Shown: piece by piece, positions 4,072 to 63,354 of the stretch | Position numbering within the stretch: position 1 is the stretch's first letter | Layout: each line of letters starts with the position of its first letter | The notes under the pieces: generated by a model | Seen by the model: the letters and a program-made list of their open reading frames with translations, nothing else | Told to the model about the DNA's origin: nothing | Database searches by the model: none | Program-made: the position numbers and the translations under genes | Assembly (NCBI GenBank): GCA_963702005.1 | Contig: OY969696.1 | Location: 713,680 to 777,679 of the forward strand | Origin: Candidatus Aminicenantes bacterium | GTDB lineage: Bacteria > Acidobacteriota > Aminicenantia > Aminicenantales > JAFGBC01 | DNA: 64,000 bases | Reading direction: 5' to 3'

Positions 4072-4079
4072 GAGCAGGA

Positions 4080-17112: not shown

Positions 17113-17177
17113 TTGTACTTCAAGGCAGGCGGCCGGGCGATCACGCGCCGAACGGCCGCGAGCTGGTCTGGCCTTAA

Positions 17178-17251
<74 letters not shown>

Positions 17252-19260: not shown

Positions 19261-19270
19261 GAGGCGGCCG

Positions 19271-20389: not shown

Positions 20390-20413
20390 CGAGAGGCGAA
20401 AAAGGGGACAACC

Positions 20414-21616: not shown

Positions 21617-21637
21617 GCCCGGCCGGAGCCCGGCGCC

Positions 21638-22918: not shown

Positions 22919-22925
22919 GGATGCC

Positions 22926-28689: not shown

Positions 28690-28911
28690 TCAGCACTCAT
28701 AAGCCGTAAACGGCTTATGAGTACAGTCGCTCCAATGCCTGTAATGCGCGGTTCCCACAGAATTGAGTCCATGGAGCTCCGGGCCGGCGAGCAGCCTTGC
28801 AGCACTCATGACCCATAAACGGGCCATGAGTACTGCGAAACGCCTGCACTCATGACCCATAAACGGGCCATGAGTACTGCGAAACGCCTGCACTCATGGC
28901 TTCCATGAGTG
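28690..28911. repeat. Array of about four hairpin-containing ~44-nt repeats (two perfect tandem copies at 28802-28845 and 28846-28889) between convergent genes
   Basis: Unit gcactcatgacccataaacgggccatgagtactgcgaaacgcct, with variants cagcactcataagccgtaaacggcttatgagtac and cactcatggcttccatgagtg. Each contains a ctcatg...catgag stem. Confidence 0.7.
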
Positions 28912-42470: not shown

Positions 42471-44505
42471 TCAGAAGCTCCGCGCGCAGATCCCGCCGCC
42501 CGCGGTCCCGACGTAGATCTTGCGGGCGGCGCCGTCGACCTGGATCGAGTTCACGCTCTTGACCGGCAGGTCGCCGGAGAGGTCCGTCCAGGTCGCCCCC
42601 TTGTCGGCGCTGTGCCAGAGGCCGTTCCAGTTCCCGACAAAAAGCTCGTTCGGATTGAGCTTGTTGACGGCCAGGCAATCGCCGGAATAGGGCGCGTTGG
42701 CGAGCTTGGTCCAGGAGCCGCCGCCGTCCGTGGAGGCGAAAATGCCTTCCCACCCGGTCGCGGCATAGACCGTGGCGGGAGAGCCGCCGGACACGGCCAG
42801 GGCGTCGATCGGGCACCCGGTCGAGGGCGGGCTCAACGAGGTCCAGTTGGCCCCGCCGTCCGTGCTTTTATGCAGGACCGGCGAGCCGGAGGAGGTCGTG
42901 CCGGCGACATAGATCGTCCGGGTATTGGAGGGGTCGAACGCGGCGGCGCAAGCCTGGCTGTTTTCATCGGTCCGAATCCGGACCTGGGTCCAAGTCAGGC
43001 CGCCGTCGGTCGAGATGAAAACGCCCATGTAATTTTTGCCGCCGACCACGATGTATCCCGCCGCCAGGACGCGGTTGGGAACGGCCGGGTCGACGACCAG
43101 GATCAGCCCCTGGCAGCCGGCGCCGGGAAGAAGCTGTTGAAAGTTGGCGCCTCCGTCTACAGACCTGTAGACGCGGGGGGTGCTTCAGCCGTAGGTCGAG
43201 AGATAAACCCGGTTCGGGTCCGCGCTGGGGACGGCCAGGTCGGCGATGTTGTCGCTCCCCAGGAAATCGGGGAGCTTCGTCCAGCTCGCGCAGGCGTTCG
43301 CGCTCTTGAAAACCCCGACCGACGTCGCCGCCGCGTACGCCGTGGCCGGAGCGATCGCCGAGGACGAAGAGCCGGGCATCCGGAACCCCCCGATGTTCGT
43401 CGCCAGGATCCCCGCCTGGGACGGCAGGAAGGTTTTCCCGGCGCTGGTGCTTTTAAAGACCCCCGCCGTCGCGGAGACGTGAACCGTGCTTCCCGAGATC
43501 AAGACCTTCGACGCGAGTCCGGCGAAGCCGGTCCCGCATTTGGTCCAATCCGTTCCGCCGTTCGTGCTCTTCCAGACTTCCTTGGACCCGCCGCCGTACA
43601 CGATGCTGGGATGGACCTTGTTCGAAGGCCAGGGACTCCAGGTAAGCGATATAAGACGGGCTGTTCTGCTTCTTCCAAGTGGTCCCGGAGTTGGCCGATA
43701 TCGCCACCCCCGCTACCGTGTTTTGGTAGGACACCAAGATCCGGGAGGGATTCGAGGGGTCGATGGCGACCGTGTAAGCATAGTTGACTATGGTGTGGAG
43801 ATCGTTCATGAATGCGGGCGTGACGTTCTTCCAGGCCCCCCCGCCGTTCGTGGAGCGGAAGACGCGGGCGCGATAATTCGAGCCGTCGTAGAAGTACCCG
43901 CAGAAGAAAATGGTGGACGGATTCTTGGGGGAGATGGCGATATCGCGGCCGTAGGCGTAGCTCGACGTCGCCTCCATCGTCTTATGGCTCCAGGTTTGGC
44001 CGCCGTTCGTCGTCATGAAGACGGCGAGGCATGTCTTCCAACTGGACGTGTCATAGGTATAACTCCCCGCGACGAAAATGACCTTGGGATTTTGGGGGTT
44101 GATGGCGATCCTCCCGGAATAGCCCTGCCGGTATTGGCCGAACGGAAGCTTCGTGAAGGTCGACCCTTGATCGACCGATTTATAAAGTCCGTCCGAGGCC
44201 AGGATATAGATCGTCCGCGGATTTTTAGGGTCCAGGACGAAATCGTAAGCGTAATCGCCGAGGATGGACTTGAGGGTCCAGCTCTTGCCGTTGTTGACGG
44301 ACCGGTACACCAGCCCGCGCTCGGACACCGCATAAAGCTCGGAGGGCGATTTGAGGTTGCGGGCGATGCCCATGATGTTGCCGCCGGTGGGGCCGAGCTG
44401 GGTCCAGACCGCCGCTTGATCCACAGGGCGGGCGGCGCGCATGCCGGGGCCGCCGATGAGAAGGGCGCCAAGGATTGCCCAGATATAAACGGCCGGTCTT
44501 TTCAT
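42471..44505 (-). pseudogene. BNR/Asp-box repeat beta-propeller protein, paralog D: frameshift near 43450-43600 plus in-frame TGA at 43185-43187
   Basis: Three ORF pieces (43453-44505, 43185-43601, 42471-43049) with a signal peptide and repeated S-x-D-x-G-x-T-W motifs. The last two pieces are in the same frame, separated by one TGA. Confidence 0.6.
43154..43187 (-). other. In-frame TGA plus SECIS-like hairpin (CGUCUACA-GGUC-UGUAGACG) of paralog D
   Basis: The hairpin starts 11 nt 3' of the UGA on the coding strand. The loop is GGUC. It is coded by VYRSVD using the rare codons GUA, AGG and UCU. Confidence 0.6.
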
Positions 44506-44547
44506 TCTCCCTCCTCCGGAAAAATCCGCATTTTCCCTTCTCGGCCA

Positions 44548-44575
44548 TTATAGCGGGGGGTGTCCCGGCGGTCAA
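44548..44575 (-). promoter_or_regulatory. Sigma-70-like promoter of paralog D (TTGACC-N17-TATAAT)
   Basis: The same arrangement is conserved upstream of paralogs A, B and C. Confidence 0.45.
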
Positions 44576-44644: not shown

Positions 44645-46666
44645 CTAAAACGTCCGCTTCCAGATGCCTCCACCTTGGGTCCCGACGTAGAGGGTGTGGT
44701 TCGTCGCGTTGAAAACGAGCTGATTTACGTACGGAACGGGCAGTCCCTGGCTGACGTCGGTCCAGGTCAGGCCCCGGTTCTGGCTGTAAAAAACGTTCTG
44801 GTTGTTTCCGACGAACACTTGGTTGGGATTGTTCTTGTTGACGGCCACGGCCCGGAAACCGTAGCTGTATGTTGTGAAGGTGCACTTGGTCCAGGAGGTC
44901 CCGCCGTTCGCACTCCGCCAGAGCTCACTGTTGGTCCCGACATAGACGATATTCGAGTCCTGGGGATCGACGGCGATCGCCTGGGGCGGGTATTGAATCC
45001 CGTTCGTGATCGCGGTCCAGTTGACCCCCCCATCCGCGCTCCTATACACGAGAGCGCTAGAGTTGGAGGTATATCCGCCGACGTAGAGGATGTTCGCGTC
45101 GCCCGGCGCGACCGCCACCACGGTCGATTGGCTGCCCTCTTGGGTGCTGATCCGGATGGGCGTCCAGTTCGTCCCCCCGTCCTTGGAGACGACGATTCCC
45201 ATCGACGTGACGCTCCCTTGTTTGACTGATCCGGTAATGATAAGTTGGCTGAAGTTCTGGGGATTCGCGTAGAGGCTTCCGTATCGGCACTCGTAGAGAT
45301 CGTAAATCTGTTGGAACGTCCGTCCTCCGTCTACAGACCTGTAGACGAATTCGCCCTGCGGTCAGCCGCTGGGCTTGACATAGATGGTATTGGGATTCGT
45401 GGGGTGAACGACGATGCTGGCGACGAGCGTGCTGCCCACGAATGTTCCGCAGGTCGTCCAGGCCGATCCCCCATTGGCCGTCTTAAAGAGGGCATATCCC
45501 GTGATCCCGGCGTAGATGGTGCTCGGCGAAGAAGGCGAGACGCCTAAAGCCGCGATGTTCGAGCCGCGGATGCCGGCGTGGCTGGGATTCCAGGTGGAGC
45601 CGCCGTTCTTGCTCAGGAAAATCCCAACCTGGCTTGCCAGGTGGACATTGGACCCGGCGGCCAGGATTATGCGGCTCTCTCCATGGATGCCGTCGCTGTA
45701 AGCTTTCCAGGTGATCCCGCCGTCCGTGCTCTTGAGGACGCTGTAGACGTAATCGAGCTCGCCTCCGGCATAAAGGATCTTGGAGTTGGCGGAATCGGCC
45801 GTGATGGAGTACACATACGTGATCCCTGGAGTCTGTTGGGCCTTCCAGCTTCCGCCGGCGTTCGTCGTCCGGGCGATGCCGTTGTTGTGGGCCACCCAGG
45901 CTTTTTTCGGGTCGTGGGCGTCTACATAGATGGCGTTACAGGCGGGATAGGTTCCGTCGAAAATCGCGGCGCCGCCGACGCTCGTCCAGGTGCTTCCTCC
46001 GTTCTTCGAAACGTAGGCGCGGCCGGTATCGACGCTGTTCTTATAGTCGTAGCCGCATAGATAAATGTAATTGGGGTTGGCCTTGGCAAAAACGACGTCA
46101 TATCCATAGCCGGAATCGGCCGAGTTCGGGAACCTCTTGACGGTCCAAGACGCGCCGCCGTTCGTCGTTTTAGCGACGGCGATATCGCTTTTGTAGTTCA
46201 CGTTGTCATACCGGTATGACCCGGCGATCATAATGATCTGGGGATTGGCCGGGTGGACGGCGATCCGGCCGTACCAGCCGGTAAATCCGGCCGGGAATGC
46301 GCGAACCGTGAAATTTTTGCCCTTGTCCGTGCTCTTGTGAAGATAGCCGTAGCTGAGGACGTAGATCGTGCTCGGGGTCTTGGGATCGACAGCGAGGTCG
46401 TAGATCGCCTGGGAGACGATGGATTGGCGCGTCCAGCTCGCGCCGCTGTTCGTGGATCTCCAAACCTGACTCGGCCAGCTCGAGCTCGCGGCATAGAGCT
46501 CGGCCGCCGACTTGGGATTCCGGGCCAGGCCGCGGATATCCCCTCCGTAGGGGCCGACCGGGGTCCAGGAACCGGCCCGGTCGGGCCGCTCGATCGGGGC
46601 GGAGCCGCGCCCGAAGAGGAAGACGGCGCACAGGACCGCCAGGATGATGACGACGGCTTTTTTCAT
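44645..46666 (-). CDS. Secreted BNR/Asp-box repeat beta-propeller protein, paralog A; single in-frame TGA at 45362-45364 (candidate selenocysteine or read-through)
   Basis: The N-terminal ORF (signal peptide MKKAVVIILAVLCAV) ends at TGA. The next 53 codons have no stop and read PQGEFVYRSVDGGRTFQQIY, a canonical BNR motif. They are in the same frame as the C-terminal ORF 44645-45202. Confidence 0.65.
45328..45364 (-). other. In-frame TGA plus SECIS-like hairpin (CGUCUACA-GGUC-UGUAGACG) of paralog A
   Basis: Perfect 8-bp stem with GGUC loop, 14 nt 3' of the UGA. Confidence 0.6.
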
Positions 46667-46708: not shown

Positions 46709-46738
46709 ATTATAGGCAATTTCCCGCCCGGCGGTCAA
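46709..46738 (-). promoter_or_regulatory. Sigma-70-like promoter of paralog A (TTGACC-N18-TATAAT); RBS GGAGGAGGG before the ATG
   Basis: ttgaccgccgggcgggaaattgcctataat on the coding strand. Confidence 0.45.
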
Positions 46739-46762: not shown

Positions 46763-48784
46763 TTAAAACGTCCGCTTCCAGATGCCTCCACCTTGGGTCC
46801 CGACGTAGAGGGTGTGGTTCGTCGCGTTGAAAACGAGCTGGGCTACGTACGGAACGGGCAATCCCTGGCTGACGTCGGTCCAGGTCAGGCCTCGGTTCTG
46901 GCTGTAGAAAACGCCCTGGCTGGACCCGACAAACACCTCGTTGGGGTTGTTGTTGTTGACGGCCACAGCATCGAAATTGTAGGCGTTGGTCGGGAACGTG
47001 CATTTCGTCCATGAGGCCCCGCCGTTCGAACTCCGCCAAACTTCCCAAAAGGTCCCAACATAGACGATGTTCGGATCCTGGGGATCGATGGCGATAGATT
47101 GGGGCACGTATTGGATTCCGTTCGTGACGGAGGTCCAGTCAACCCCTCCGTTCACGCTCTTATAGACAAGCCCGGTATAGGTAGCGCTCTGGCCGCCGAC
47201 ATAGAGGAGGTTAGCGTTGCTGGGCGCGACCGCCGCGACGTTCGATTGGCTGCCGTCCTGGCTGCAGATTTTGACCGGCGTCCAACTCGACCCCCCGTTC
47301 GTCGAGAACACGATTCCCATCGAGGTTACGCCCCCCTGCTTGACCGAGCCCGTGATCAGGAGGAAGTTGATGTTCTGGGGGTTCGCGTAAAGGTTTCCGT
47401 ACCGGCATTCGTAGAGATCGTAAATCTGCTCGAATTTCCGTCCTCCGTCTACAGACCTGTAGACGAATTCGCCCTGGGGTCAGCCGCTGGGCTTGACGTA
47501 GATGGTGTTCGGGTTCGAGGGATGGACGACCACGCTGGCGACGAGATCGCTGCCGTAGAATTCGGTACAGGGCGTCCAGGCGGAACCCCCGTTGACCGTC
47601 TTGAGCAGAGCGTAGCCTTGGATTCCGGTGTAAATCGTGTTCGGCGAGGAAGGGGCGATGGCGAAGGCTTTGATATTTGCCGCCCGGATTCCGTTGTGGC
47701 CGGGGTTCCAGGTCGTGCCGCCGTTCTTGCTCAAGAAGATTCCCGCTTGCGTCGCCTGGTGGACCTTGGAGCCGGCGGCCAATATTTGGCGACATTCTCC
47801 GTAGAGGCCGGTGCTCGAAGCCTTCCAGGCATTACCCCCGTCGGTGCTCTTGAGGCTGCTGTAGACCAAATTGTACTTGCCGCCCGCGTAGAGGATATTC
47901 GGGTTGGAGGAATCGGCCGCGATGGCCGTAACATGCGTGATCTGGGGCGTCTGCTGGGCCTTCCAGCTCCCGCCGGCGTTCGTGGTCCGGGCGATGCCGC
48001 TGTCATGGCCCACCCAGGCTTTTTTCGGGTCGCGGGGATCGACGTGAATGGAGTAGCAGGCAGGGTAGCTGTTGTTGAAGACGGCCGACGAGCCGACGCT
48101 CGCCCAGGTGCTCCCGCCGTTCTTGGAAACGAAGACCCGCGCGGCTGTGACGCTGTTTTTCTGATCATACCCACAGAGATAAATGTAATTGGGGTTGCTT
48201 TTGGCGAATACGATGCCGCGGCCATAACCATAGTCGGTCAGATTGGAAAGTCTTTTGAGCGTCCAGGTCGCGCCGCCGTTCGTCGTCTTGGCGACGGCGA
48301 TTTCGGAATGCCAATCGGCGGTGTTGTAATAATAAGACCCGACGACCATGATAATCTTGGGATTAGCCGGGTGGACGGCGATCCGGCCGTTGTAGGACTG
48401 GAAATCGTCCGGGAACCGATGGTTCGAGAAGGTCTTGCCTTTATCCGTGCTCGTGTAGAGATAACTTTCGCTGAGGAGGTAAATCGTGCTCGGGGTCTTG
48501 GGGTCGATGGCGAGGTCGTAAATCCATTGCATGACGATCGATTGGCGCGTCCAGCTGGCGCCGCTGTTCGTGGATCTCCAAATCTGGCTCGGAGAACTCG
48601 AGCTCACGGCGTAGAGTTCGGCCGCCGACTTGGGATTCCGGGCCAGGCCTTGGATATCCCCTCCGTAGGGGCCGAGCGGGGTCCAGGAACCAGCCCGGTC
48701 GGGCCTGTCCGCCGGGCCGGGGCTGCGCCCGAATAGAAAGACGGCGCACAGGACCGCCAGGATGATGACGACGGCTTTTTTCAT
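46763..48784 (-). CDS. Secreted BNR/Asp-box repeat beta-propeller protein, paralog B; in-frame TGA at ~47480-47482
   Basis: Same architecture as paralog A, about 85% identical. The N-terminal and C-terminal ORFs are in the same frame, 53 codons apart. Confidence 0.65.
47445..47482 (-). other. In-frame TGA plus SECIS-like hairpin of paralog B
   Basis: cctccgtctacagacctgta on the plus strand gives the coding-strand GUCUACA-GGUC-UGUAGAC hairpin. The exact base coordinates are ±1. Confidence 0.55.
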
Positions 48785-48826: not shown

Positions 48827-48856
48827 ATTATAGGCAATTTCCCGGCCGGCGGTCAA
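48827..48856 (-). promoter_or_regulatory. Sigma-70-like promoter of paralog B
   Basis: ttgaccgccggccgggaaattgcctataat. Confidence 0.45.
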
Positions 48857-48963: not shown

Positions 48964-51000
48964 TTAAAAATCCCTCCGCAGAATGCCGCCCCCCGATGTT
49001 CCGACGTAGACCTGGCGGGCGGCGCCGTCGATCTCTATCGATGTCACGCCCCTGACGGGAAGACCCTCCGAAATGTCCGTCCAGGTTGCTCCTTTGTCGT
49101 TGCTGTAGGAAAAGAAGCTCCAGTTCCCCGCGAATATTTCGTTTGGGTTGGACTCATTGATGGCGATGCAATTGCATCCCCAGGGGCCGTTCTCGAGCTT
49201 GGTCCAGGTGTCCCCGCCGTTCGTGGAGACGAAAATACCCGCCCAGGAGGTTCCCAGATAGATCGTGCCCGAGACGCTCGGATCTACGGCGATGGCCTCG
49301 ATCCTGGCTGAGGACGAGGGAGGAGTCAGCTCGGTCCAGCTCGCGCCCCCGTCCGTGCTCTTGTGCAGGGCCGGGGCATAGGAGGATTTATAGCCGGCGA
49401 CATAGATCGTATTCCTGTTCGAAGGGTCGAACGCCGCGACTTCCAGGCAGCTGCCCGTATCGTTCCTGATCTTGATTTGTTTCCAATCGGATCCGCCGTC
49501 CGTCGACAGGAAAATCCCCATTACATATTGACTGCCGCTGACGACATATCCTCCCGCTATGATGTGCTTCGGATCCGCGGGATCGGTCAGGAGGATGAGT
49601 CCTTGGCAGCCGGCTCCGGGCAGAAGTTGCTTAAAGCTTTTGCCTCCGTCTACGGAACTGTAGACGCGGGGGTTGCTTCAGCCGTAGGTCGAGAGGTAGA
49701 CCCTGTTCGGGTCCGCGTTCGGAACGGCGAGATGAGCGATGCTGTCGCTTCCCGCGAAATTGCCGAGCTTCGCCCAGCTCCTGAAGCCGTTCTCGGTTCT
49801 AAAGATGCCGTAATTGGTGACCGCGGCATAGGCTGTGTTTGCGGAGGCGGCGCTCGCCGATGAGCGGGGATATTGGAAATCCGCTATTTCGGCGGCTTGA
49901 ATTCCCGCGTGGGAGGCTTTAAAAGAGCGGCCCGCGTTCGTGCTCTTGAAGACGCCCGCCGTGGACGTGACCTGAAGCGTATTCCCCGAGGCAATGATCC
50001 TCGATACGGTGCCGCAGAGGACGTTCGAGAATGGCGTCCAATGATGTCCGCCGTCCTTGCTTTGATAGATCGTTTTATAGGCTCCTCCGTAGAGGACATT
50101 GGGATTGGTTTTGTCGAGGGAAAGGGACTGGATATTATAAAGGCTCTGAGGATTCGTCTGGTTCTGCCAACTGACCCCGGCGTCGGCCGTAAAGGCCACT
50201 CCGCCATAATACGGGACGAACAATCTCGCGGCGTTCGAGGGGTCGACGGCGACGGCGTAGGCCTGGCCGTAAAATCCCGAGCCCGCGTTCATGAAGGCGG
50301 GAGTGATGTCCTTCCAGGTCCCGCCCGTATTCGTGGAGCGGTAGATGCGGGCGATGCAGCCCGTGCCGGCCCAATAATAGCCGCAGAAATAGACCGTGGA
50401 CGGAGCCTGGGCGGGAATGACGATGTCGCGCGCGCAGCCCGAATCCGAAGTCGTGTCCATCGTCTTCTGGGTCCAGCTTTTGCCTCCGTTCGTCGATTTG
50501 AAGACGGCCAGGCACGATTTGTTGGCGCTTGAATTGGTGGTATAGCTTCCCGAAACGAAGACGATATTCGGATTTTGGGGGTGGACCGCGATTCGGCCCA
50601 GAAAGGCGTATCGATGGCCGCCGAGCGGGAATTTCGTGAATGTTGTTCCTCTATCGGCGGACTTATAGAACGCTTCCGAGGATAGGACATAGACTGTCCG
50701 CGGATTCTTCGGGTCCAGCGCTATATCGGAAGCATCGATGTCGAGGTGGGACTGGCGTGTCCAACTCCCGCAGCCGTCGGCTGACCGGAAGACTTGCCCC
50801 TGCTTGGTTAGGACGTATAGTTCGCTCGGAGATTTCGGGTGGCGCGCGATGGAGATGATATTTCCGCCGTTCGGCCCGAGTCCGGTCCAGACCGAAGCGG
50901 CCTCCGGAGACGACGATGGAGAGGGCTCCGGTCCGCGAAGGCGGCCGTAGAGCACGGCGGCGCAGAAGACGGCTAAGATGACCCCCATGGCTTTTTTCAT
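48964..51000 (-). CDS. Secreted BNR/Asp-box repeat beta-propeller protein, paralog C; in-frame TGA at 49678-49680
   Basis: N-terminal ORF (MKKAMGVILAVFCAAVLYG signal peptide) and C-terminal ORF in the same frame. The read-through sequence is SNPRVYSSVDGGKSF. Confidence 0.65.
49647..49680 (-). other. In-frame TGA plus SECIS-like hairpin of paralog C (CGUCUAC-AGUUCC-GUAGACG; the loop differs from GGUC)
   Basis: Hairpin 11 nt 3' of the UGA; 7-bp stem conserved; loop variant. Confidence 0.5.
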
Positions 51001-51041: not shown

Positions 51042-51071
51042 ATTATAGGGAATTCTCCGCCCGGCGGTCAA
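51042..51071 (-). promoter_or_regulatory. Sigma-70-like promoter of paralog C
   Basis: ttgaccgccgggcggagaattccctataat. Confidence 0.45.
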
Positions 51072-51140: not shown

Positions 51141-51707
51141 ATGAGAACCAAGACAGTCCTATCCACCCTGTTCTTTTTCGCGGTTTTCTGCCTTTTGTCC
51201 TCGGCCCTCGCCTCGGCCCAGCTCGAAGTCCCCAAGGTCGTGACCGCGCGGGCCGTCTTGTCCAAGAGCGCAGTCCACGCCGGTGAGACGGTCAAAATCG
51301 CCGTCGTCCTCAAGATCGAGAAGGGCTGGCACATCAACTCGGATGATCCCGGCGACGAGTTCCTGTTCCCCTCGTCCCTCGCCCTTGACGAGGTCGCCGG
51401 CTTCGAGGTCAAGGCTTTGGCCTTCCCCAAGCCCAAGCAGGCCAAGTTCGAGTACTCCGACTTCGAGCTCCGCGTCTACGAAGACGAGGCCGTCGTGGGG
51501 GCGCTCCTCCAGGTCGCGGAGAGCGTTAAAGCCGGCGCCTACAGCCTGACGGGAGTGTTCAAGTACCAGGCCTGCAACAATACGTCGTGCATTATGCCCC
51601 AGGACCTCCGCCTCGAGATCCCGGTCGAGGTCGTGGCGGCGGGCGTCGAGACCAAGGACGTCGAGCCCGACCTCTTCGCCAAGATCGAATTCAAGGACAA
51701 AAGCTGA
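51141..51707 (+). CDS. Exported DsbD-N-terminal (alpha-domain)-like protein with C-x4-C pair
   Basis: Signal peptide. KYQACNNTSCIMPQ resembles the redox Cys pair region of the DsbD alpha / thiol:disulfide interchange N-terminal domain. Confidence 0.4.
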   Translation: MRTKTVLSTLFFFAVFCLLSSALASAQLEVPKVVTARAVLSKSAVHAGETVKIAVVLKIEKGWHINSDDPGDEFLFPSSLALDEVAGFEVKALAFPKPKQAKFEYSDFELRVYEDEAVVGALLQVAESVKAGAYSLTGVFKYQACNNTSCIMPQDLRLEIPVEVVAAGVETKDVEPDLFAKIEFKDKS

Positions 51708-51753
51708 GGCGCGGGCCGCGATCGGAGGCTCGGTCGGCTCCGAACGGAGACGC

Positions 51754-53163
51754 ATGAAAGAATCTCTTTTTCGGCTGATCCCATCTGTGGACGCCCTCCT
51801 CAATCATCCGGAGGCGCGCCGGCTCGCCGAGGCGTACGGGCGGCCCTTGGCCTTGGACGCCGTCCGCGACGAGCTCGAGGCGGTCCGGGCCGAAATCCAA
51901 ACGGCCGGCGCCGCATCATCCTTGGCCGAGAAAGACCTTGCCCCGGAGGCCTTGCTCGACCGAGTCCGGGCGCGGCTCGAGCGGAAGCTCGCCCCCTCGC
52001 TGGGACGCACGATCAACGCGACCGGGATCGTCATCCATACCGGGCTGGGGCGGGCCGTCCTGGCTCCCGAGGCGCGGGAGGCCCTGGCGCGCGTGTCCCA
52101 AGGATACTCGCAGCTCGCCGTGGATCTTGAGACAGGTCAGCGCGGCCATCGCGACGTCCATTACGCCTCCCTTCTCCGCGAGCTGACCGGCGCCGAGGCC
52201 GGTTTCGCCGTCAACAACAACGCCGCGGCGACCGTCCTCCTTCTCAACACCCTGGCCAAAGGCAAGGAGGTCATCCTCTCGCGCGGCCAGCTTGTCGAGA
52301 TCGGGGGTTCGTTCCGGATGCCCGACGTCATGGAGACGTCGGGGGCCGTCCTGCGCGAGGTCGGGACGACCAACAAGACCCATCTCCGCGACTACGAGGC
52401 GGCGATCTCGGACCGGACCGGCATCCTCCTTCGCGTCCACCACTCGAACTACCGGATCATGGGCTTCGCCGAGGAGCCGGGGATCGAGGAGCTGGTCGAG
52501 CTCGGCCGCAAGCACGGCCTCCCCGTCGTCGACGATATCGGAAGCGGGGCGCTGGTTGACCTCAAAGATTACGACCTCGAGACCGAGCCACTCGTCCAGC
52601 GGAGCGTCCGGGCCGGCGCCGACGCCGTCTGCTTCTCGGGCGACAAGCTCATCGGCGGGCCCCAGTCGGGGATCATCGTCGGCAGGGCCAAGGTCGTCGG
52701 GCGCGTCAAGAAAAACCCGCTGGCCCGCGCTTTCCGGATCGGGAAGCTGACCGCGGCCGCCCTCGAAGCGACCCTCAAGCTCTTCCTGGACCCGGACCGG
52801 CTGAGGGACCGGCATCCCGTCTACCGGATGCTGGGGCTGGACGCGAAGGAGATCGAACGGCGGGCGCGCGCCGCGTCGGATACGCTGGCGCTCGGCCTGG
52901 CCGGGCGGGCCCGCGTTTCGGTCGTAGAGGACCGGTCCCAGGTCGGAAGCGGCTCGGTCCCGGTTGAGACCCTCCCGACCTTCGTCCTCAAAATCGAATC
53001 CGCGTCTCTTCCGGCCGAGGAGCTGGCCCGCCGGCTGCGGCGCGGCGCCCCGCCCGTCTTCGGCCGCGTCCACAAGGACGCGCTCCTTCTCGACTTTCGG
53101 ACCGTCTTCCCCGAAGAGGACGGCATCGTCATCGACGCCGTCCGGGCGGCCGTCGAACCTTAA
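51754..53163 (+). CDS. selA: L-seryl-tRNA(Sec) selenium transferase (selenocysteine synthase)
   Basis: [18 protein letters not shown] matches the SelA PLP-lysine motif SGDKLLGGPQAGII. 469 aa. Confidence 0.85.
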
Positions 53164-53178
53164 GGGAGAGAACCGGCC

Positions 53179-54384
53179 ATGGTCGACCTCGAAAAGCGCC
53201 GCCGGATCATGGGGCGCTCCATCAAGCTCGGGCACTGCATCTGCAACCCCAAGGACCCCTGTCCCTGCGACCTGTTCAAGCGGAAGAACGTCTGCCTCTG
53301 CGCGGGCGAGCGCGAAGAGGAGGCGGCCGAGGACGTCGCCCTGACCAAGCTCGTCGAGAACGCGGGCTGCGCCTCCAAGGTCTCCCAGGAATTTCTCAAA
53401 CAGGCCCTCGAGGGGCTGCCCGCCGTCTTCGACCCGCGGGTGCTCGTCAGCTCCTCGACTTGCGACGACGCCGGGATCTTCAAGCTCAACAATACGACCG
53501 CGCTCGTCCAGACGGTCGACGTCTTCTCGCCCTGCGTCGACGACCCCTACGTCTTCGGCCAGATCGCCGCGGCCAACTCCGTGAGCGACGTCTATGCCAT
53601 GGGCGGAAAACCCCTGACGGCCCTGTCCATTATCGGATTCCCCTCGGACCGGCTCTCGCCCCGGATCATGAACAAGATGCTCCAGGGCGGAATCGACAAG
53701 CTCGGCGAGGCCGGGGTCCCCGTCCTAGGCGGCCACAGCATCAAGGACGCCGAAGTCAAATTTGGGTTCGCCGTCACCGGGGTCGTCCGGCCCGATCGCA
53801 TCCTGACCAACGACAAGGCCCGGCCCGGGAACGTCCTTGTCCTGACCAAGCCGATCGGGACGGGGCTGGCCTGCTTCGCCCAACAGCTCGGGAAGGCGGA
53901 CGCGGCGCTCCTCGAGGCGACCGCCCGCTCCATGACCGAGCTCAACGGCCCCGCCGCCGAGGAGGCCGTCAGAGCCGGCGTGCGGGCCGCGACCGACGTG
54001 ACCGGATTCGGTCTCCTCGGCCACTTGGCCGAGATGGCTGTCCAGAGCCGGGTCACGGCCGAAATCTGGGCCGAGGAAGTGCCCCTGTTCAAGGGCGTCC
54101 TCGACCTCGCCCGCAAGGGGGTCGTCTCGGGCGCCGTCGAGCGGAACCGGGAATACGCGATGCGCTTCGTGACCAAGGCCCCGGACGTCGGCGAAGAGTG
54201 GGAGGCGGTCCTCCTCGATCCCCAGACCTCGGGCGGTCTTCTTCTTGCCGTTTCCCGGGCGCGCGCGGCCGGGCTCCTCAAGAGGCTCGCGGCGCGGGGG
54301 ATCGCGTCGGCGCGGATCATCGGGCGCATCGCAGAGTCGTCCGAGGGAGCGATCCGTGTCCGACTCCGGCCGGAGGGTTCTTAA
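53179..54384 (+). CDS. selD: Selenide, water dikinase (selenophosphate synthetase), Cys-type, with a Cys-rich ~45-aa N-terminal extension
   Basis: [11 protein letters not shown] corresponds to the SelD active-site (G)C/U motif. PurM-like body (DDAGIF...GGHSI...). The extra N-terminus is [26 protein letters not shown]. Confidence 0.85.
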
Positions 54385-54395
54385 GGGGAGAGGTC

Positions 54396-56319
54396 ATGGC
54401 CGGGCTCGACAAAGACCACGTCATCTTCGGCACGGCCGGCCACATCGACCACGGCAAGAGCTCGCTGGTCAAGGCCCTGACCGGGACCGATCCCGACACG
54501 CTTCCTGAAGAAGAAGCTCCGGGGGATGACGATCGAGCTCGGGTTCGTATTCCTGGACCTCCCCGACTACGAGAAGCAGATCGTCTTCATCGACGTCCCC
54601 GGCCACGAGCGGTTCGTCAAGACGATGGCGGCCGGGGCCTCGAACATCGACGCCGCCCTCCTGGTCATCGCCGCCGACGAGGGCGTATCGGTCCAAACCC
54701 GCGAGCACTTCGACATCCTCCGTCTCCTCGACGTCCCGCTCGGGATGGTCGTCCTGACCAAGGCCGACCTGGTCGACGCGGACCGGATGGCCGAAGTCCG
54801 CGGCGACGTCGTCCGTTTCGTCGCGGGCTCCTTCCTCGAGGGCGCTCCCCTTCTGGCCGTCTCGTCCGTGACCGGCGCCGGGATCCCCGAGCTCAAAGCG
54901 GCCCTGGTTGAGATGGGGCGGAAAGTGCGGCGGCGGAGCGACACGGGCTTCTTCCGGATGCCGGTCGACCGCGTCTTCACCATCCAGGGCTTCGGCACGG
55001 TCGTGGCGGGAACGGTCCTGGGCGGCGCGGTCGGCGTCGGCGACCGGATCGAGGTTTTTCCCGATCGGCTTCCGGCCCGGGTCCGGGGCGTTCAAGTCCA
55101 CGGCCGCGGCGCCGAGCGGAGCGGGATCGGGACACGGACGGCCCTCAACCTGATGGACGTCAAGAAGGAGGATCTGCGGCGGGGACAATGCGTCGCCGCG
55201 GCCGGCAGCCTGACGCCGACCAACCGGCTCGACACGGAGCTTCTCTTGCTGGCCGACGCCGGCAAGGAGCTCAAGCACCGCGAGCGGGTCCGCCTCCACG
55301 TCGGGACGGACGAGGTCATCGCCCGAGTCGTCCTTCTCGACCGGGCCGCGGTCCAGCCGGGCGAGAAGGGCTTTGTCCAGTTCGTCCTAGAGGCGCCGAC
55401 CGTGGCGCTTCCCGGCGACCGGTTCGTCATCCGGACCTTCTCGCCGCTGATGACGATCGGAGGAGGCCGGGTCCTCGACCCGACGCCGGGCCGGCACAAA
55501 CGGTTCGACGATCAGGTCATCCAGGGGTTGGGCCGGCTCGAAGGGAGCCTCGACGAGGTCGTCGAACAGCTTTTAGTCAAGGCCCGTTTCGCGCCCCAAT
55601 CTCTGAGCGAGCTGGAGTTGAGCCTGGGCGGCCGCGCCAAGGAGGTCAAGGAATCCGTCGCCGCGCTCGTCGCGGCGGGGAAGACCGTCGCCGTCCCGTT
55701 CGAGAAGGAGGAGCGCTACCTTCACGCCGGCGCCGCGGCCGAGCTCGCCGGGAGGCTCGTCGGACTCGTCAAGGACTACTTCGAGAAGTTCCCCCACAAG
55801 CTGTCGATGCCCCTCGGCGACCTCCGCTCCCAGTTCCTGAAGCTGAGCGAGGCGGCCGTCTTCCGGAAACTCCTGGAGGAGCGGGCGGCCCAAGGCGCCT
55901 TGGACGCCCAGGGGACCGAGGTCCGCCTCCCCGAGCGCGGCGTTCGGATGACGGCCCGCGAGCAGGAACTGGCCCGCCGGATCGAGGAGGCCTATCTCAA
56001 GGCCGGCTACGACAGTCCGCTCGATGACGAGCTGTGCCGGACGTTGGGCGCCGAGCCGCCCCTGTTCGAGAAGGTCCTGTTCAGCCTCTACGACCAGAAA
56101 AAGCTGATCCGTCTCAACCCCAAGGTCACCTACCACGTCGATACGGTCGCCAGCATGAAGGCGCTCGTCCAGGAGCACCTCAAACGGAAAGGGGGCATCA
56201 CGATCGCGGAGCTCCGGGATACGATCAAGCTTTCGCGCAAGTACGCGCAGGCCGTCCTCGAGTATTTCGACCGGGTCGGGTTGACCCGGCGCGTCGAGGA
56301 CCGCCATGTGCTAAAATAG
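54396..56319 (+). CDS. selB: Selenocysteine-specific elongation factor SelB, with an apparent +1 frameshift at the GAAGAAGAAG run (~54505-54520)
   Basis: Frame 0 from ATG 54396 reads [39 protein letters not shown] (SelB G1 motif). Frame 1 from 54514 reads [15 protein letters not shown]...DVPGHERF and carries the remaining G-motifs and the C-terminal winged-helix SECIS-binding domains. Confidence 0.8.
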
Positions 56320-56331
56320 ACGACGACCCGC

Positions 56332-56427
56332 GGGAGGGTATAGGTTCCGGTGGGCCTTCTGGACTTCAAATCCAGCACGGGGCCGTGAAACGTCCCGGGT
56401 GGGTTCAACTCCCACACCTTCCCGCCA
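56332..56427 (+). tRNA. selC: tRNA-Sec (selC), anticodon TCA
   Basis: 96 nt. 8-bp acceptor stem (GGGAGGGU/ACCUUCCC, one G·U). Anticodon loop CUUCAAA. Long extra arm. T-loop GGGTTCAACTCCCAC. CCA encoded. Lies 12 nt after the selB stop. Confidence 0.85.
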
Positions 56428-56455: not shown

Positions 56456-56860
56456 TCATCCGGCCAGAAAACGGGCCGGGGACAGGGCCGTGTCGGGGAA
56501 GCTCTTGAGGAGGGCCTTGTCCGTCGTGACCAGGCGGACGTCCAGTCCCCGGGCGAGCGCGACGAACTCGCAGTCGTAGGCGGAGCATTCCGATCCGGCC
56601 GCCAGGCTCAACACGTCGAAGGAATCCACGGCGAACTCGTTGCCCTTCATCAGGGACTCAGCTTCCTTCATAATCCGGGCCGCGTCATCCAGCCCGAAGA
56701 ATCTCTTTCCGAGGCAGGCGGCCAGGACGCTCCGGAATTCGCTCCGCCATAGAGGGGGAGCCGCCCAGATCGGATCCTTGCGCAAAACCTTTTCGGCCGC
56801 GCCGCTGTGCTCCCCTTTGATGAACAGATAGGCGACCAGGTTCGTGTCGACGGCGATCAC
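56456..56860 (-). CDS. vapC: PIN-domain toxin VapC
   Basis: MIAVDTNLVAYLF... PIN acidic residues. 134 aa. Overlaps the upstream antitoxin gene by 4 nt. Confidence 0.75.
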   Translation of the reverse strand: MIAVDTNLVAYLFIKGEHSGAAEKVLRKDPIWAAPPLWRSEFRSVLAACLGKRFFGLDDAARIMKEAESLMKGNEFAVDSFDVLSLAAGSECSAYDCEFVALARGLDVRLVTTDKALLKSFPDTALSPARFLAG

Positions 56861-57102
56861 GGGCGCCCCCGTCGCTTGGCCCGGTCGATAAAGTCTTGGT
56901 CCAGGACGCGGCCGGCGGTTTTATTCCTAAGGACCCGTGCTCTGGCCAGGACATCGTCCGGCTCCAGGCGGCGGGCGGTCAAGGTCTCCTCGAAGATCGA
57001 GAGGATTTCGCCGTTGATGCTCCGGCGGTTCCGACCCGCCCGGGCCCTGATCTTGTCGAACAGCTCCTGGGGGATATTCTTGACGGTGAAGTTCGCTGGC
57101 AT
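56857..57102 (-). CDS. vapB: Antitoxin (ribbon-helix-helix/Arc-like, VapB/FitA-type)
   Basis: MPANFTVKNIPQELFDKIRARA, typical of the RHH antitoxin N-terminus. Coupled to vapC. Confidence 0.65.
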   Translation of the reverse strand: MPANFTVKNIPQELFDKIRARAGRNRRSINGEILSIFEETLTARRLEPDDVLARARVLRNKTAGRVLDQDFIDRAKRRGRP

Positions 57103-57223
57103 CGCTCCGGACCGTTGGTTGTAATCTGGTTCCATTATGGTTCTTTCAAGACTAAAAGTCAATACGGATCTCCAGCGGTTGTCGATCTCCGGGAGATGTC
57201 CTCTTCAGGAATGACGCTTCGAG

Positions 57224-58688: not shown

Positions 58689-61154
58689 TTATCGTATGGT
58701 CACGGTCGCGGGCGGGCCCTCGCGGCCCGTTTCCGGATCGACCGCGACAAGCCGGTACGTGTAGGCCTTGGTCTTGTCCACGCCGCGCTCCCGATACTCG
58801 AATGTCGCCGCGTCGAGCGAAGCGACGAGGCGCGGCGTCGTCCCCTCGACCAGGTAGAGCCGGTAGGTCAGCCCGGCGTCGTTGGCAGGATTCCGCCGCC
58901 AGTTCAGGACGTTGACGTACTCGACGAAGAGGAGCGAGCGGTTTTCTTTCTTCGTGCCTTTGAAGTCGAGCGGTTCGTAGATGGTCCGCTGGAATTCGGC
59001 CCGGACGGCCAGGTCGCGGTCGACGGTGACGGTCAAGGGATTCGTCGTCCCCGATGCGTCTCCGCTCCAACCCATGAAATGATAGTTCGAGGCCGCCGTC
59101 GCCGTGATGGTCACTTGACTTCCCGGGCTATGTTTATAGGTTCCGGGAGCGGGCGTCGTCGTGCCGCCCGAGGTCGCGCTGATGACGAGGGCGTACTGGC
59201 CGCCCGGCCGGATTTGGCAGAGGCCTCCGCCCGGGGTCGCGGCGACGAGCGTGCCGGTCCCCTTGACGAAGTCGAGGGCGCTGACCGTTTTCACGATCAG
59301 GCCCAGGCTGTAATCGGACCAGGAACTCCCGAAATCCACGCTCTTCCGGACGCCGGCCCAGCCGCCCGCGTAAACCTGGTTGGGGAGGGCCGGATTGACC
59401 GCGATGGCCGTCGTCGAGGCGGTCAGGCAATGGGTCCAGGTCGCGCCGGAGTCCTCGCTGCGGAAGACGCCGTCGTCGGACGCGGCGTAAATACGGAAGG
59501 GCGAGACGGGATCGAGGACGAGGGCGGTGATGGGAGCCGAAAATACGTTGGTCCCCAGCCCCGTCCAGGTTTCGCCTCCGTCCGATGTCCGGCAAACCGA
59601 GCCCAGGCTGTTCTGAGTGCCTCCGACATAGATGATCTGCTCGTTCGTAGGATGCACCGCGATGGCGCAGACCATCCCGGGATCGGGCAGGAGCTTGGAC
59701 GCCCAATTGGCCCCTCCATCCGTCGAGATATACAAGGTGACATTGCTGCCCGGCGGACTGCCTCCCGCGTAAAGATGATCGAAGTTCTGGGAATGAACGA
59801 CCAGAACATCGAGCTGGCCCTGCTGCAACAGGCTCGTCCAGCTGTTGCCTCCATCTACAGACCTGTAGATGTAGTCTCCGGACCCTCAGCCCTGGCCGGG
59901 CGCGATCATATAAACGGTCCGGGGGTTGCCGGGATCGACGGCCGCGATATAACCCTGATCGTCGCAGCTGTAAAAATAGGGGAGGAGGGACCAGGTCCGG
60001 CCGAAGCTGTCGCTCCGATAGAATCCGCAGTTGGAAACATTGGCATAAAGGACGTTGGGGTAAGAGGCCGGTACATAGAAGGACGGGACCCGGCAGGCCC
60101 GAACCCCGGTTTGACTGGCCGCCCAGGTCGCGCCCGCGTCCGTGCTGCGGTAGACTCCGGCGTCCGAGCCGAAGAAAACCGAGCTTCCCGCCACGGCCAT
60201 GCGGCGGCAGTCGCCGAGAAGACCCGTTTCGGCGGACGTCCAGTCGATGCCGCCGTCCGTGCTCTTGTAGACCCTTTTCTGATAGCCGGCATAGAGGACG
60301 GAGGAATTCGCCGGGTCGATGGCCAGCCCGTAAGCGCAGCTGGTGTTGGCGCTGCTCTGCCAGGTCTGTCCCGAGTCCGAGGAGCGATAGACGCCCCCTT
60401 CGGTCGCGGCGAAGACCCGGGAGGGATTGTTCGGATCCGTTGCCAGGTCGTAGATCTGGGTTGAGAGCCCGCCCGTGATGTCTTGCCAGGAATCGCCGCC
60501 GTTCGTCGTCCGGTAGACGAAGAATTTAGCCGTCGTGGCGGTCCGGTAAATCCCGCTGACATAAATGACGGCCGGATTCCCGAAATTGACGCAGAGGCTG
60601 TGGCTCTCGGCGAGATCCGCGCCGGGCGAGATTCGCTTGGACGTCCAGGTTTGGCCGCCGTCCGTCGTGCGGGCTAATCCGACCGAGGCCGTCTCGGACG
60701 TTATCTGGCCGAGGATGAACAGGCTGTCGGGATCGCTGGGATGGGCGGCCAGCCGTTCGAAGCTGGTGAAGCCGCGCGGATTCGTGAGCTGCGTCCAGGA
60801 CGAGCCGCCGTTTCGGGATTTGAAAAGGGAGAGCCAGCTCATGGCATAGAGGCCGCCGCTTCCCGGAGGGCCGAAGGCGAGGTCCGTGATGGGATCATTG
60901 AATAACCCGATCCTCTTCCAGGTTTTGCCTTCGTTCGCGCTCCGGTAGACCTGGGCCGGCGTCGAATCGAAGACGGCCATGAGATCGTTGGCGTTCGCGG
61001 GATTCACGGCCAGGTCGCGCAGGCCGCCGCCGTCGGGACCGATCGATTTCCAAGCGGGGTTGTCCGCCCCGGCCGGCCGCGGCCGGGTTGGAGCGGCGGG
61101 AGGGCCGAGGATGAGCGCGGCTATCAGGATCGAGAATCCAATTCCTTTTTTCAT
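58689..61154 (-). CDS. Secreted BNR/Asp-box repeat beta-propeller protein, paralog E; in-frame TGA at ~59886-59888
   Basis: N-terminal ORF (signal peptide MKKGIGFSILIAALILG) and C-terminal ORF 58689-59828 in the same frame, 19 codons apart. Read-through reads GSGDYIYRSVDGGNSW. Confidence 0.65.
59853..59888 (-). other. In-frame TGA plus SECIS-like hairpin of paralog E (AUCUACA-GGUC-UGUAGAU)
   Basis: 7-bp stem with GGUC loop, 14 nt 3' of the UGA. Coordinates ±1. Confidence 0.55.
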
Positions 61155-61371
61155 AAAAACACCCTCCGCCTGGAATCAGCAGGGTCCGAATCTGATTCCC
61201 GATTATTTTATATAGGAGGGCGGTCGGGGAGTCAACCTTTCGACACCCATAGCCGTTTCCGGCTTAGTATGAGTGCTGCAAGGCTGCTCCCCGGCCCCGG
61301 ATTGATTTGTGGAAGCTTTTCTGGTAAACAAGGGAGACAGGAACCGACATCGCGGGAAGGAGGTAGGGCTC

Positions 61372-63354
61372 ATGCAGGCTTGGAAGCGCCGATTCCCGGC
61401 GGCCCTCATCAAGATCCTGATCCTCGGCGCGCTCGCCTTTCTTTCGGTCAAGCCGGCCGCCGCCCAGAATCCGATCGACTTTACCCTCAAGGACGCGGAC
61501 GGCAATGACGTCCACCTCCGCGACTTCCTGGGCAATAAGGTCGTCCTGGTCGATTTCTGGGCGACCTGGTGCGTCCCCTGCGTCAAGGAGCTGTCCCACT
61601 TCCAGCGCTTCTACGAGTCCTATAAGGACAAGGGTTTGGTCGTCCTGGCCATTTCCGAGGACGGCCCCGAGACCGTGGCCATGGTCAAGCCCTTCCAGCG
61701 GCGCTACAAGTACACCTTCACCATCCTCCTCGACTCCGAATCCAAGGTCCTGGCCCTCTACAACCCGAGGGTCGTCTTGCCCTACACGCTCCTCATCGGC
61801 CGCGACGGCCGGATCGCCAAGATCCACCAGGGCTACAGCCTGGGCGACGAGAAAATGCTCGAGCAGGAGATCGTCGAGCTTCTCGAGCCCAAGGCGGAAG
61901 TCAAGGCGAGCCGGATGTCGCTGAGCGCCAGCGAATCCTTCCTGTACCGCCATTTCACCGACAAGGATTATGTCGACGACTCGCGCGAGGGCCGGCCCAA
62001 CCAAATCCTCAACAAGTTCGACCTGACCCTTAACGCGGGCGATCTCCTGGTCGGGATCAGGGCCGACGCGAACCTCGACTTCTCGCCGATGCGGCACGAT
62101 TACAGCCTGGCCAAGCGGTTCGTCGAGTTCAACAAATGGAACTTCAGCCTGCGGGCCGGGGATTTCTATTACTCGGTGGGGCGGGGGCTCGCCTTCAGCC
62201 TGCTCAAGATCTTCGAGAAGGAGGGCCTCGAGTACATCATCGACACGACCATCGAGGGCGGGAAGCTCAGCTACGGCGGGAACAAGTTCGAAGCCTGGGG
62301 GGGCTGGGTCGAACGCGAGCGGACGTCGCGGGAGGCGCCGATCGTCCGGGACCTGGTCGGGGGGCTGAGCGTCGGGACCCGCGTCTTGAGCTTCGCCGAC
62401 GTCAACCTCAACGTCGTCGGGGCGCGGCTCGAGCCGGGCTCCGCGTTGGGGAGCCGGAACGTCTCCATGGAAACCCTGACCTTCTCGGCGGCCAAGATCG
62501 GCAATTTCGCCAAGTTCTACGGCGAGGGCCTCCTCATCCAGAAGGAAAAATTCTATGTCCCGAACACGATCTACGGCCACGGCGTTTATCTCGAGTCGGG
62601 GCTGTTCTTCGGGAACCTGACTCTTTTATTCGAGTTCAAGGATTACCAGGACCTCGACTTCGAATACAACCGGCCGCCCCTGCTTGAGAGCGAGCAGCTG
62701 GCCGTCGTCGCCAACCAGTTCGTGACCTCGGCCAAGGACTCGACCGGCGCCGCGATCCGGGCCGATTGGTATTTCCCGGGGGCCTCGACCCTTCTCTTTG
62801 CCAAGGGCAGCTGGATCGACGACCTGCCCGGCCACTTTCCGCGGACGATCACCCATTTTTTCGGGGGCGTCGAGAAGAAGTTCAAGGAGACGGGCTGGCT
62901 GACCCTGATCGGCGGCTACCGAAACGAGCAGGCGAGCTCCCTGGTTTTTTACTATACGGCGGGCCGGACCTTCCATTGGCAGGGGAATCTCAGCTATCCC
63001 CTGACCAGGCGTCTGAGCCTCGAGCTCGACATCGAGGCCAAGGACTTCGACGGAACGGTCCCCTTCGGAGGGAGGTTTACCGATTATTTCGAACGGCGCT
63101 CGTACCTGTCCTTGAGCTACTCCCCCCGTCTCATCCTGACCGTCCTCTACGACCGGACGGACGACCCCGAGATCCTGGCCGTCAAGAACAAGAAGGATTG
63201 GTGGGGGACGCAGCTCGAGATCAAACTATCCCACGCCAAGTCGATCCGGATCTTCTACGGGTCCAACAAGGGGGGCGTCAAGTGCGCGGGCGGCGTCTGC
63301 AAATTCTTCCCGCCCTTCGAAGGGTTGAGGATCGACGGCGTCCTTAGGTTCTGA
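61372..63354 (+). CDS. TlpA/ResA-like thioredoxin (WCVPC) fused to a ~500-aa C-terminal domain ending in Phe (outer-membrane beta-barrel-like)
   Basis: Signal peptide; VVLVDFWATWCVPCVKE thioredoxin-fold active site. The C-terminal region has alternating-hydrophobic strands and ends ...GLRIDGVLRF. Confidence 0.55.
   Translation: MQAWKRRFPAALIKILILGALAFLSVKPAAAQNPIDFTLKDADGNDVHLRDFLGNKVVLVDFWATWCVPCVKELSHFQRFYESYKDKGLVVLAISEDGPETVAMVKPFQRRYKYTFTILLDSESKVLALYNPRVVLPYTLLIGRDGRIAKIHQGYSLGDEKMLEQEIVELLEPKAEVKASRMSLSASESFLYRHFTDKDYVDDSREGRPNQILNKFDLTLNAGDLLVGIRADANLDFSPMRHDYSLAKRFVEFNKWNFSLRAGDFYYSVGRGLAFSLLKIFEKEGLEYIIDTTIEGGKLSYGGNKFEAWGGWVERERTSREAPIVRDLVGGLSVGTRVLSFADVNLNVVGARLEPGSALGSRNVSMETLTFSAAKIGNFAKFYGEGLLIQKEKFYVPNTIYGHGVYLESGLFFGNLTLLFEFKDYQDLDFEYNRPPLLESEQLAVVANQFVTSAKDSTGAAIRADWYFPGASTLLFAKGSWIDDLPGHFPRTITHFFGGVEKKFKETGWLTLIGGYRNEQASSLVFYYTAGRTFHWQGNLSYPLTRRLSLELDIEAKDFDGTVPFGGRFTDYFERRSYLSLSYSPRLILTVLYDRTDDPEILAVKNKKDWWGTQLEIKLSHAKSIRIFYGSNKGGVKCAGGVCKFFPPFEGLRIDGVLRF

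Follow-up and report, generated by a model that had tools for sequence, protein, structure and literature searches.

In Escherichia coli, selenocysteine (Sec) decoding relies on SelA, SelD, SelB and tRNA-Sec; the selenocysteine insertion sequence (SECIS) of fdhF is a hairpin inside the open reading frame (ORF), just after the UGA, and SelB carries C-terminal winged helices. Neighbourhoods with several selenoprotein genes at one locus have been described as well, namely the SAO and Tso operons, grdA-grdB and frhA-frhD-hdrA (PMC13188914, section 9). Catalogued bacterial selenoproteins are mostly redox proteins with a thioredoxin fold, and the extracytoplasmic families in the 2026 catalogue include an FCYXU-type TonB-dependent receptor, a GSU2204/MtrB-like barrel, DsbA/DsbG-like proteins and DUF1573 (PMC13188914). 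Here, we analyze a stretch of 64,000 nucleotides from a Candidatus Aminicenantes bacterium (contig OY969696.1; the whole stretch is called the window hereafter), in which a sel operon lies between genes for Asp-box beta-propeller proteins with an in-frame TGA. The host of this operon is an Aminicenantes-like organism. Taken as a whole, the locus is very probably an ordinary sel operon flanked by five propeller selenoprotein genes, the UGA of which is decoded by SelB via a hairpin. The sel locus itself is ordinary and textbook; the novelty lies in the client family, which appears to be an undescribed bacterial selenoprotein family with a standard SECIS/SelB mechanism.

The window shares with E. 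coli the four components, the hairpin inside the ORF just after the UGA and the winged helices of SelB, but all its components are united with tRNA-Sec in one operon, headed by a DsbD_N-like gene. In contrast to fdhF, the window hairpin has a stem without a predicted bulged U. Its apical loop is GGUC, as in fdhF, and lies 1 or 4 nt further from the UGA than the fdhF loop. Like the multi-selenoprotein neighbourhoods mentioned above, the locus clusters several selenoprotein genes (PMC13188914). Those neighbourhoods, however, combine different enzymes of one pathway, whereas the window holds tandem paralogues of one family with their own promoters, in an array that also adjoins the decoding machinery. 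With the extracytoplasmic families of the catalogue, the propellers have a secreted or envelope location, a single Sec and Cys homologues in common, but the folds are unrelated.

No Asp-box, BNR, Sortilin or GH74-like propeller is present among the 119 prokaryotic selenoprotein families of the May 2026 catalogue (PMC13188914), nor is the family mentioned in the main texts of BSepDB and deep-Sep. In NCBIfam release 20, no selenoprotein-specific model matched the propellers, only NF045728, Ycf48 and BamI models, and a literature search found no paper that pairs selenocysteine or selenoprotein with BNR, Asp-box, GH74, Vps10, xyloglucanase or beta-propeller. The uncommon features are the secreted, non-thioredoxin propeller fold, the tandem multi-copy arrays, a SECIS within a protein motif, and the adjacency to both the decoding operon and secreted thiol-disulfide oxidoreductases. 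The catalogue of selenoproteins would thereby gain a structurally unrelated family, that of secreted, Sec-containing Asp-box double propellers encoded in two to seven tandem copies per locus.

The decoding operon and its propeller clients

An ordinary bacterial Sec-decoding operon occupies positions 51141-56427 on the plus strand. At its head stands a gene for a DsbD_N-like secreted protein (51141-51707; Pfam PF11412, E 3.9e-10) with a signal peptide and a CNNTSC motif, co-oriented with the rest and separated by 46 nt from selA. The latter (51754-53163) encodes a full-length L-seryl-tRNA(Sec) selenium transferase (TIGR00474 equivalog, 562 bits versus a cut-off of 267.9) and is followed by selD for selenophosphate synthetase (53179-54384; TIGR00476, 363.9 bits versus a cut-off of 125), the active-site loop of which, GCASK, identifies it as the Cys form. 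In the product of selB (54408-56319; Sec-specific elongation factor; TIGR00475, 278.5 bits versus a cut-off of 242.25), the Pfam search finds the SelB beta-barrel and the winged helices SelB-wing_2 and SelB-wing_3. Finally, selC, the tRNA-Sec gene with anticodon UCA (56332-56427; ARAGORN tRNA-SeC (tca); Rfam RF01852, 73.8 bits versus a threshold of 47), starts 12 nt after selB. The contiguity and common orientation of selA, selD, selB and tRNA-Sec, with gaps of 12-23 nt, had been described in an earlier note made from the letters of this DNA, and its coordinates hold against the TIGR models, ARAGORN and Rfam. The note had also called the machinery complete. All four components are indeed there, but selB is not a single ORF in this assembly, a frameshift that had been missed.

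The operon is flanked by five propeller paralogues, all on the minus strand and each with a single in-frame TGA. Paralogue 1 (42471-44504; TGA read as Sec at 43185-43187, hairpin core at 43156-43171) has a frame that is broken near 43621. Paralogues 2 (44645-46666; TGA at 45362-45364, core at 45330-45345) and 3 (46763-48784; TGA at 47480-47482, core at 47448-47463) both count 673 amino acids, Sec (U) included. Paralogue 4 (48964-51000; TGA at 49678-49680, core at 49649-49664) counts 678 amino acids and has the loop variant AGUUCC, and paralogue 5 (58689-61154; TGA at 59886-59888, core at 59854-59869) counts 821, with additional InlB-B-repeat-like C-terminal domains. UGA-containing BNR genes do flank the operon on both sides, as previously claimed (paralogues 4 and 5 were then named C and E), but there are five of them rather than four, the gene at 42471-44504 being additional. 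Neither are they immediately adjacent: the DsbD_N gene lies between paralogue 4 and selA, and 2.3 kb with three genes precede paralogue 5.

In all five paralogues, the reading frame runs on past the TGA into further Asp-box blades, the TGA occupies the same 'G-U' column and the frame is conserved on either side. Pfam finds Sortilin-Vps10 (PF15902) with E from 1e-46, the value for paralogue 2, to 7e-36, plus BNR repeats; NCBIfam adds NF045728 ('F510_1955 family glycosylhydrolase'), and both PF15902 and NF045728 score above cut-off. A hydrophobic signal-like segment is present at the N-terminus of all five proteins. A sigma-70-like promoter, TTGACC-N18-TATAAT, precedes paralogue 4 (51042-51071, minus strand), and near-identical promoters precede paralogues 3, 2 and 1 (48827-48856, 46709-46738 and 44547-44575, minus strand), each with 11 of 12 matches; the promoter scan returned 11 sites versus 2.7 expected. 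The upstream regions of paralogues 1-4 align as similar, conserved leaders with GGAGG sites. As each of these four genes has one promoter ahead of it, the duplication unit carries its own promoter.

Each TGA is followed by one hairpin, (G/A)UCUACA-GGUC-UGUAGA(C/U), with a stem of 7-10 bp that starts 12 nt (paralogues 1 and 4) or 15 nt (paralogues 2, 3 and 5) downstream. The 16-nt core TCTACAGGTCTGTAGA, with up to 3 mismatches, occurs at five places in the window, each after a TGA, compared to 0.16 in shuffled sequence. The hairpin agrees with all four constraints of the bacterial SECIS consensus (PMC13188914): its apical loop has 4 nt (3-9 nt required) with GG in the first two positions (at least one G required), the upper stem has 7-10 bp (4-16 bp), and the UGA is spaced 19 or 22 nt from the loop (16-37 nt). 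The minimum free energy is -12.5 to -16.8 kcal/mol (-7.5 kcal/mol or lower required). At the protein level, the same nucleotides encode the Asp-box peptide V-Y-R-S-V-D-G-G, using the codons TAC AGG TCT GTA GAC in four paralogues and TAC AGT TCC GTA GAC in paralogue 4. Among the Asp-box-like motifs of the paralogues (n = 33), hairpin-forming codons are found only in those after the UGA and in 0 of the 28 others. The comparison was extended to 17 distinct paralogues and orthologues from the window and five loci, in 16 of which TAC AGG TCT GTA GAC is invariant at synonymous sites, paralogue 4 being the exception, while neighbouring codons vary. This synonymous-site conservation, together with the codon control on the other Asp-boxes, indicates at the level of sequence comparison that selection acts on the hairpin RNA; covariation is not relied on. 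In the hairpin alignment, 96% of the cells are paired versus 12-50% in slid controls, and the only variation is one compensatory pair, G-C to A-U, which closes the stem in paralogue 5. A SECIS within Asp-box codons is a clean natural case of dual coding and could serve as a convenient reporter of SelB specificity in an uncultivated phylum.

All five window paralogues and 12 further distinct loci have an in-frame UGA flanked on either side by conserved coding sequence. In the databases, these genes mostly surface as truncated proteins. For instance, protein P0001 equals the N-terminal 434 amino acids of paralogue 3 and ends at the TGA. The best 19 matches to paralogue 3, plus many more distant ones, have 423-485 residues and cover only 64% of the query, and the truncated homologues examined, including proteins of an Aminicenantes metagenome-assembled genome (MAG) and a KSB1 MAG (L155), all end in ...G immediately before a TGA (12 of 12). 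The public gene calls examined split the propeller genes at the TGA, and recognizing the family would correct many truncated-protein annotations in Aminicenantes, KSB1 and related metagenome bins. Full-length homologues with Cys at the Sec column are P0021 (e.g., LAVGCSDQPVYRS), P0022, P0029, P0032 and P0049; others have T, S, G or a gap at this column. The standard computational criteria for a selenoprotein family (UGA, SECIS, frame conservation and Cys homologues) are all found here, and the five flanking propeller genes are accordingly predicted to be selenoprotein genes. They are thus real Sec clients, as the earlier note had proposed, with all four components of the machinery encoded next door.

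The family extends to distant homologues of about 25-33% identity with a TGA at the same 'G-U-G' column in L071 (near 11174), L078 (near 2180) and L155 (3389-3391), the last of these a KSB1 MAG protein with a type IX secretion system sorting tail. In this 'ALEGxG-U-G' subfamily, differing downstream hairpins fold, and a common SECIS model is not claimed since they are not in a shared register. Family-alignment scans of genome and metagenome contigs used generic Asp-box peptides and returned mostly relatives of 21-30% identity, the useful loci among them being L013, L071 and L078 only. Arrays of relatives also contain full-length paralogues with neither Sec nor Cys at the column (e.g., STYNNLYSRVSRS), at 2103-4127 and 10720-12798 in L001 and at 7788-9872 in L002. 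In both loci, Sec-bearing and Sec-free copies occur together in one array.

The frameshift in selB separates the first 34 or so codons (ATG at 54408, with GHIDHGKS, the GTPase G1 motif) from the ORF at 54526-56319. Alignment to L013, in which the same region is read in a single frame and selB is intact, traces the break to one extra A inside GAAGAAGAAG, around 54508-54512, that L013 does not have. Comparison of paralogue 1 with its orthologue in L002 likewise shows a frame broken by a single additional A, within GAACAAGG near 43621. Both extra bases (window 54500-54520 and 43615-43625) are an A added beside an A. In the database, the proteins of the window are assigned to one contig of 4.31 Mb. 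With two single-base insertions of one type in genes that are conserved otherwise, assembly indels are the best reading, and the extra A in selB is most likely an assembly error. A programmed frameshift in selB was considered and rejected, as L013 is without the extra base and the same kind of extra A breaks paralogue 1.

Fold and probable position of selenocysteine

An AlphaFold2 model was made of the Cys homologue P0021, standing in for the window proteins (predicted local distance difference test 91.6; predicted template-modelling score 0.89). Its best Foldseek matches in the PDB are xyloglucanases of glycoside hydrolase family 74 (GH74; 5FKR, 7KN8, 2CN3 and others), with E of about 5e-28 and template-modelling (TM) scores of 0.60-0.64. 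On the basis of these matches, the fold is a tandem seven-bladed Asp-box propeller, as in the GH74 xyloglucanases and the Sortilin-Vps10 propellers, but identity to GH74 is only 16-18%. No GH74 or Sortilin-Vps10 member is known to contain Sec. The propeller proteins are not classed as GH74 enzymes. The latter have a pair of catalytic Asp residues, one per propeller, and the ARxDIGG segment of 2CN2 holds one of them. In a profile alignment to 2CN2, the ARADIGG segment IYARADIGGAYRW is set against a non-acidic, Asp-free loop, but the repeats are out of register, and the alignment does not reveal where Sec lies with respect to the GH74 catalytic Asp.

The Sec column corresponds to Cys448 of P0021, which according to the DSSP string sits in a short loop (446-450) joining strands 441-445 and 451-456, the latter leading into an Asp-box. 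An Asp-box covers the loop that connects strands 3 and 4, and in glycosidase propellers the active site is found on the other face (PMC2716378). From this topology, Sec would lie in the strand 2-3 loop of a blade of the C-terminal propeller, on the active-site face. A further Cys follows Sec by about 25 residues, in YDLYEC in paralogues 2 and 3 and in PGAGC in paralogues 1 and 4; it is present in 11 of the 22 Sec/Cys members and in 0 of the 12 others. By the same topology, this Cys should lie in the next loop on the same face, which makes it a candidate selenenylsulfide partner.

Put together, SelB with GTP and Sec-tRNA(Sec) would bind the hairpin through its C-terminal winged helix and deliver Sec to the UGA. 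The product would be secreted and fold into two seven-bladed propellers in tandem, in the GH74-like manner, with Sec in the strand 2-3 loop, on the side away from the Asp-boxes that holds the active site in such propellers. The replacement by Cys in homologues, the co-varying Cys about 25 residues on in paralogues 1-4 and the conserved neighbouring genes for secreted thiol-disulfide oxidoreductases suggest that Sec is probably a redox-active or ligand-binding residue.

Linkage between the array and the sel operon

The divergent arrangement, with the Sec-propeller array on one strand and the DsbD_N gene, selA, selD and selB on the other, recurs in three related contigs and is therefore no accident of this genome. 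L013, from a Candidatus Aminicenantes MAG (88% identity in SelA and 94% in SelD), has the start of a propeller gene at the contig end, with the TGA position off the contig. L150 (86% in SelA) has two Sec paralogues and a tRNA-Sec after selB, and L151 (83% in SelA) has an array of about seven genes, some of which are Sec-less. DsbD_N-like orthologues of 73-78% identity are found directly upstream of selA in L013, L150, L151 and L154. The far flank of the array is conserved as well (a KHE1-like gene, YtxH, M20 peptidase and ComEC), which places the array at a fixed site with a variable copy number. In this clade, an array beside the sel operon would have grown and shrunk by tandem duplication, with every copy bringing its own strong promoter. 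The left-hand linkage is thus a conserved feature of a sub-clade, but not an obligatory one. In L154, the SelA of which falls in the same 90%-identity cluster as P0123 (itself 88% identical to window SelA), the flanks, the DsbD_N-like gene, the operon and tRNA-Sec are kept, while the array has decayed to one remnant. L152 and L153 (64-65% identity in SelA) have selA-selD-selB-tRNA-Sec among unrelated genes, without propeller neighbours. On the right-hand side, L156 contains an orthologue of paralogue 5 with the A-U-closed hairpin and, divergent from it, the redoxin-DUF6029 gene (63% identity); no sel genes are present within 10 kb of this orthologue. This neighbour is hence conserved with the redoxin gene and not with the sel genes. 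The synteny comparison called for in the earlier note accordingly has a mixed outcome: the left linkage recurs in L013, L150 and L151, but it is absent in L152 and L153 and decayed in L154, and these last three loci leave its phrase 'obvious clients', if taken to mean the sole or main reason for the sel genes, unsupported.

Could the TGAs be true stops, which would make these genes split or decaying pairs of a 434-residue and an approximately 200-residue product, with the hairpin a by-product of Asp-box codons? Public gene callers divide the genes in this manner, and two genes of this assembly, selB and paralogue 1, are frameshifted. Yet, the 15 codons right after the TGA are conserved in frame without a start codon, the break would cut through a propeller blade, and the full-length Cys homologues are continuous. 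Moreover, homologues with identities of 30-75% have their TGA at one and the same column, and the 28 other Asp-boxes of the same genes form no such hairpin, all of which leaves this account very improbable. Even less credible is that a reassigned code or near-cognate suppression makes UGA specify Trp, Gly or Cys rather than Sec. Low-level misreading of UGA as Cys or Trp can occur in bacteria, and homologues do have Cys at the column. However, TGA is the true stop of 17 of the 31 annotated window ORFs and the commonest stop codon there, and hence the genetic code is standard and UGA not reassigned; furthermore, tRNA-Sec, SelA, SelD and SelB are encoded next door and the hairpin fits the SelB-binding consensus.

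A rival of a different kind accepts the propellers as selenoproteins but sees linkage without dependence: the sel operon would be kept mainly for selenoproteins elsewhere, and the array would occupy a duplication-prone site, with the propellers as opportunistic clients. We give this somewhat less than an even chance. It agrees with the unrelated neighbours of the same cluster in the relatives of 64-65% SelA identity, with L154, where an intact operon accompanies only a Sec-less remnant, and with the distant TGA-bearing homologues in L071, L078, L155 and L156, which have no sel genes in the flanks examined (up to 10 kb per side). Opposed to it are the fact that the window and three related contigs all keep the array next to the DsbD_N gene and the sel operon, and the content of the window, with five Sec genes of the propeller family and no other selenoprotein; further family copies could also lie elsewhere in the L152-L154 genomes. 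At the opposite extreme, the sel operon, the propeller array and the genes for the DsbD_N-like protein and the TlpA-like redoxin-DUF6029 would make up one selenium island, specifying a catalytic or binding system outside the cytoplasm that works with a selenol on a GH74-like scaffold. Sec on the active-site face would possibly cycle with the nearby Cys and be re-reduced by the secreted oxidoreductases, and the Sec machinery would be kept mainly for this family. In this full form, the proposal is doubtful, but the conserved neighbours of the propeller genes, namely the sel operon and genes for secreted thiol-disulfide oxidoreductases, do offer a lead to the function of Sec.

Several observations weigh against reading the locus as a sel operon with propeller selenoproteins, or limit how far it can be taken. 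The selenoprotein status is a computational prediction. The selB gene is frameshifted in this assembly and Sec insertion would be disabled if the extra A were real; the indel in paralogue 1 points to an assembly error without proving it. Since the hairpin is almost invariant, covariation is minimal and a covariation test nearly uninformative, and single-sequence fold z-scores are modest (-1 to -3.5). As the arrays of relatives include paralogues with neither Sec nor Cys, the fold does not depend on this residue. Only 11 of the 22 Sec/Cys members have the candidate partner Cys, and paralogue 5 is not among them; the three-dimensional position of Sec was taken from secondary structure, not from coordinates. 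Finally, L152, L153 and L154 have retained the sel operon with no Sec-propeller genes beside it.

Neighbouring genes and minor observations

The 2.3 kb between tRNA-Sec and paralogue 5 hold a PIN/RHH toxin-antitoxin pair and an FAD (flavin adenine dinucleotide) amine-oxidase-like gene. The pair, a PIN-domain toxin with an RHH (FitA/Arc-like) antitoxin, follows directly after tRNA-Sec on the minus strand (56456-57162); in L153, the sel operon has a PIN/MazE pair downstream that is unrelated to this one. Beyond paralogue 5 and divergent from it (together 58689-63354), a gene on the plus strand (61309-63354) encodes a secreted AhpC/TSA redoxin fused to DUF6029 (PF00578, E 3.8e-24; PF19494) with a WCVPC motif. 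In L156, a second redoxin gene stands beside the propeller/redoxin-DUF6029 pair (7668-12484). The L154 propeller remnant (4113-5018) has 301 residues and an internal deletion, lacks both the TGA and the hairpin, and is separated from the DsbD_N-sel operon by inserted DUF6345 genes.

SelD of the window has a Cys-rich N-terminal extension of about 50 residues (53179-53330) without a Pfam match, while its orthologue in L150 (9303-10904 of that locus) counts 533 residues and has a C-terminal CMD/AhpD-like domain. The earlier note was right that no classical selenoprotein is present in the window, as the 31 annotated ORFs include none. Elsewhere, the window holds housekeeping genes, such as those for TatC, PurD, MutL, type IV pilus proteins, LpxK and ComEC. 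An IS200-like transposase lies at the left end (76-1014), and tRNA-Pro and tRNA-Arg (17038-17251) are followed by a type IV pilus cluster (17536-24335) with PilB, PilT, PilC, a PilS-like kinase and a sigma-54 response regulator. The two indels described above suggest long-read assembly errors, by which other genes of the genome may be affected too. An ORF of 789 residues on the minus strand (28894-31263) matches class I/II aminotransferases over residues 30-388 only; its C-terminal 400 or so residues are without a Pfam match, and the ORF could be a fusion or another indel artefact.

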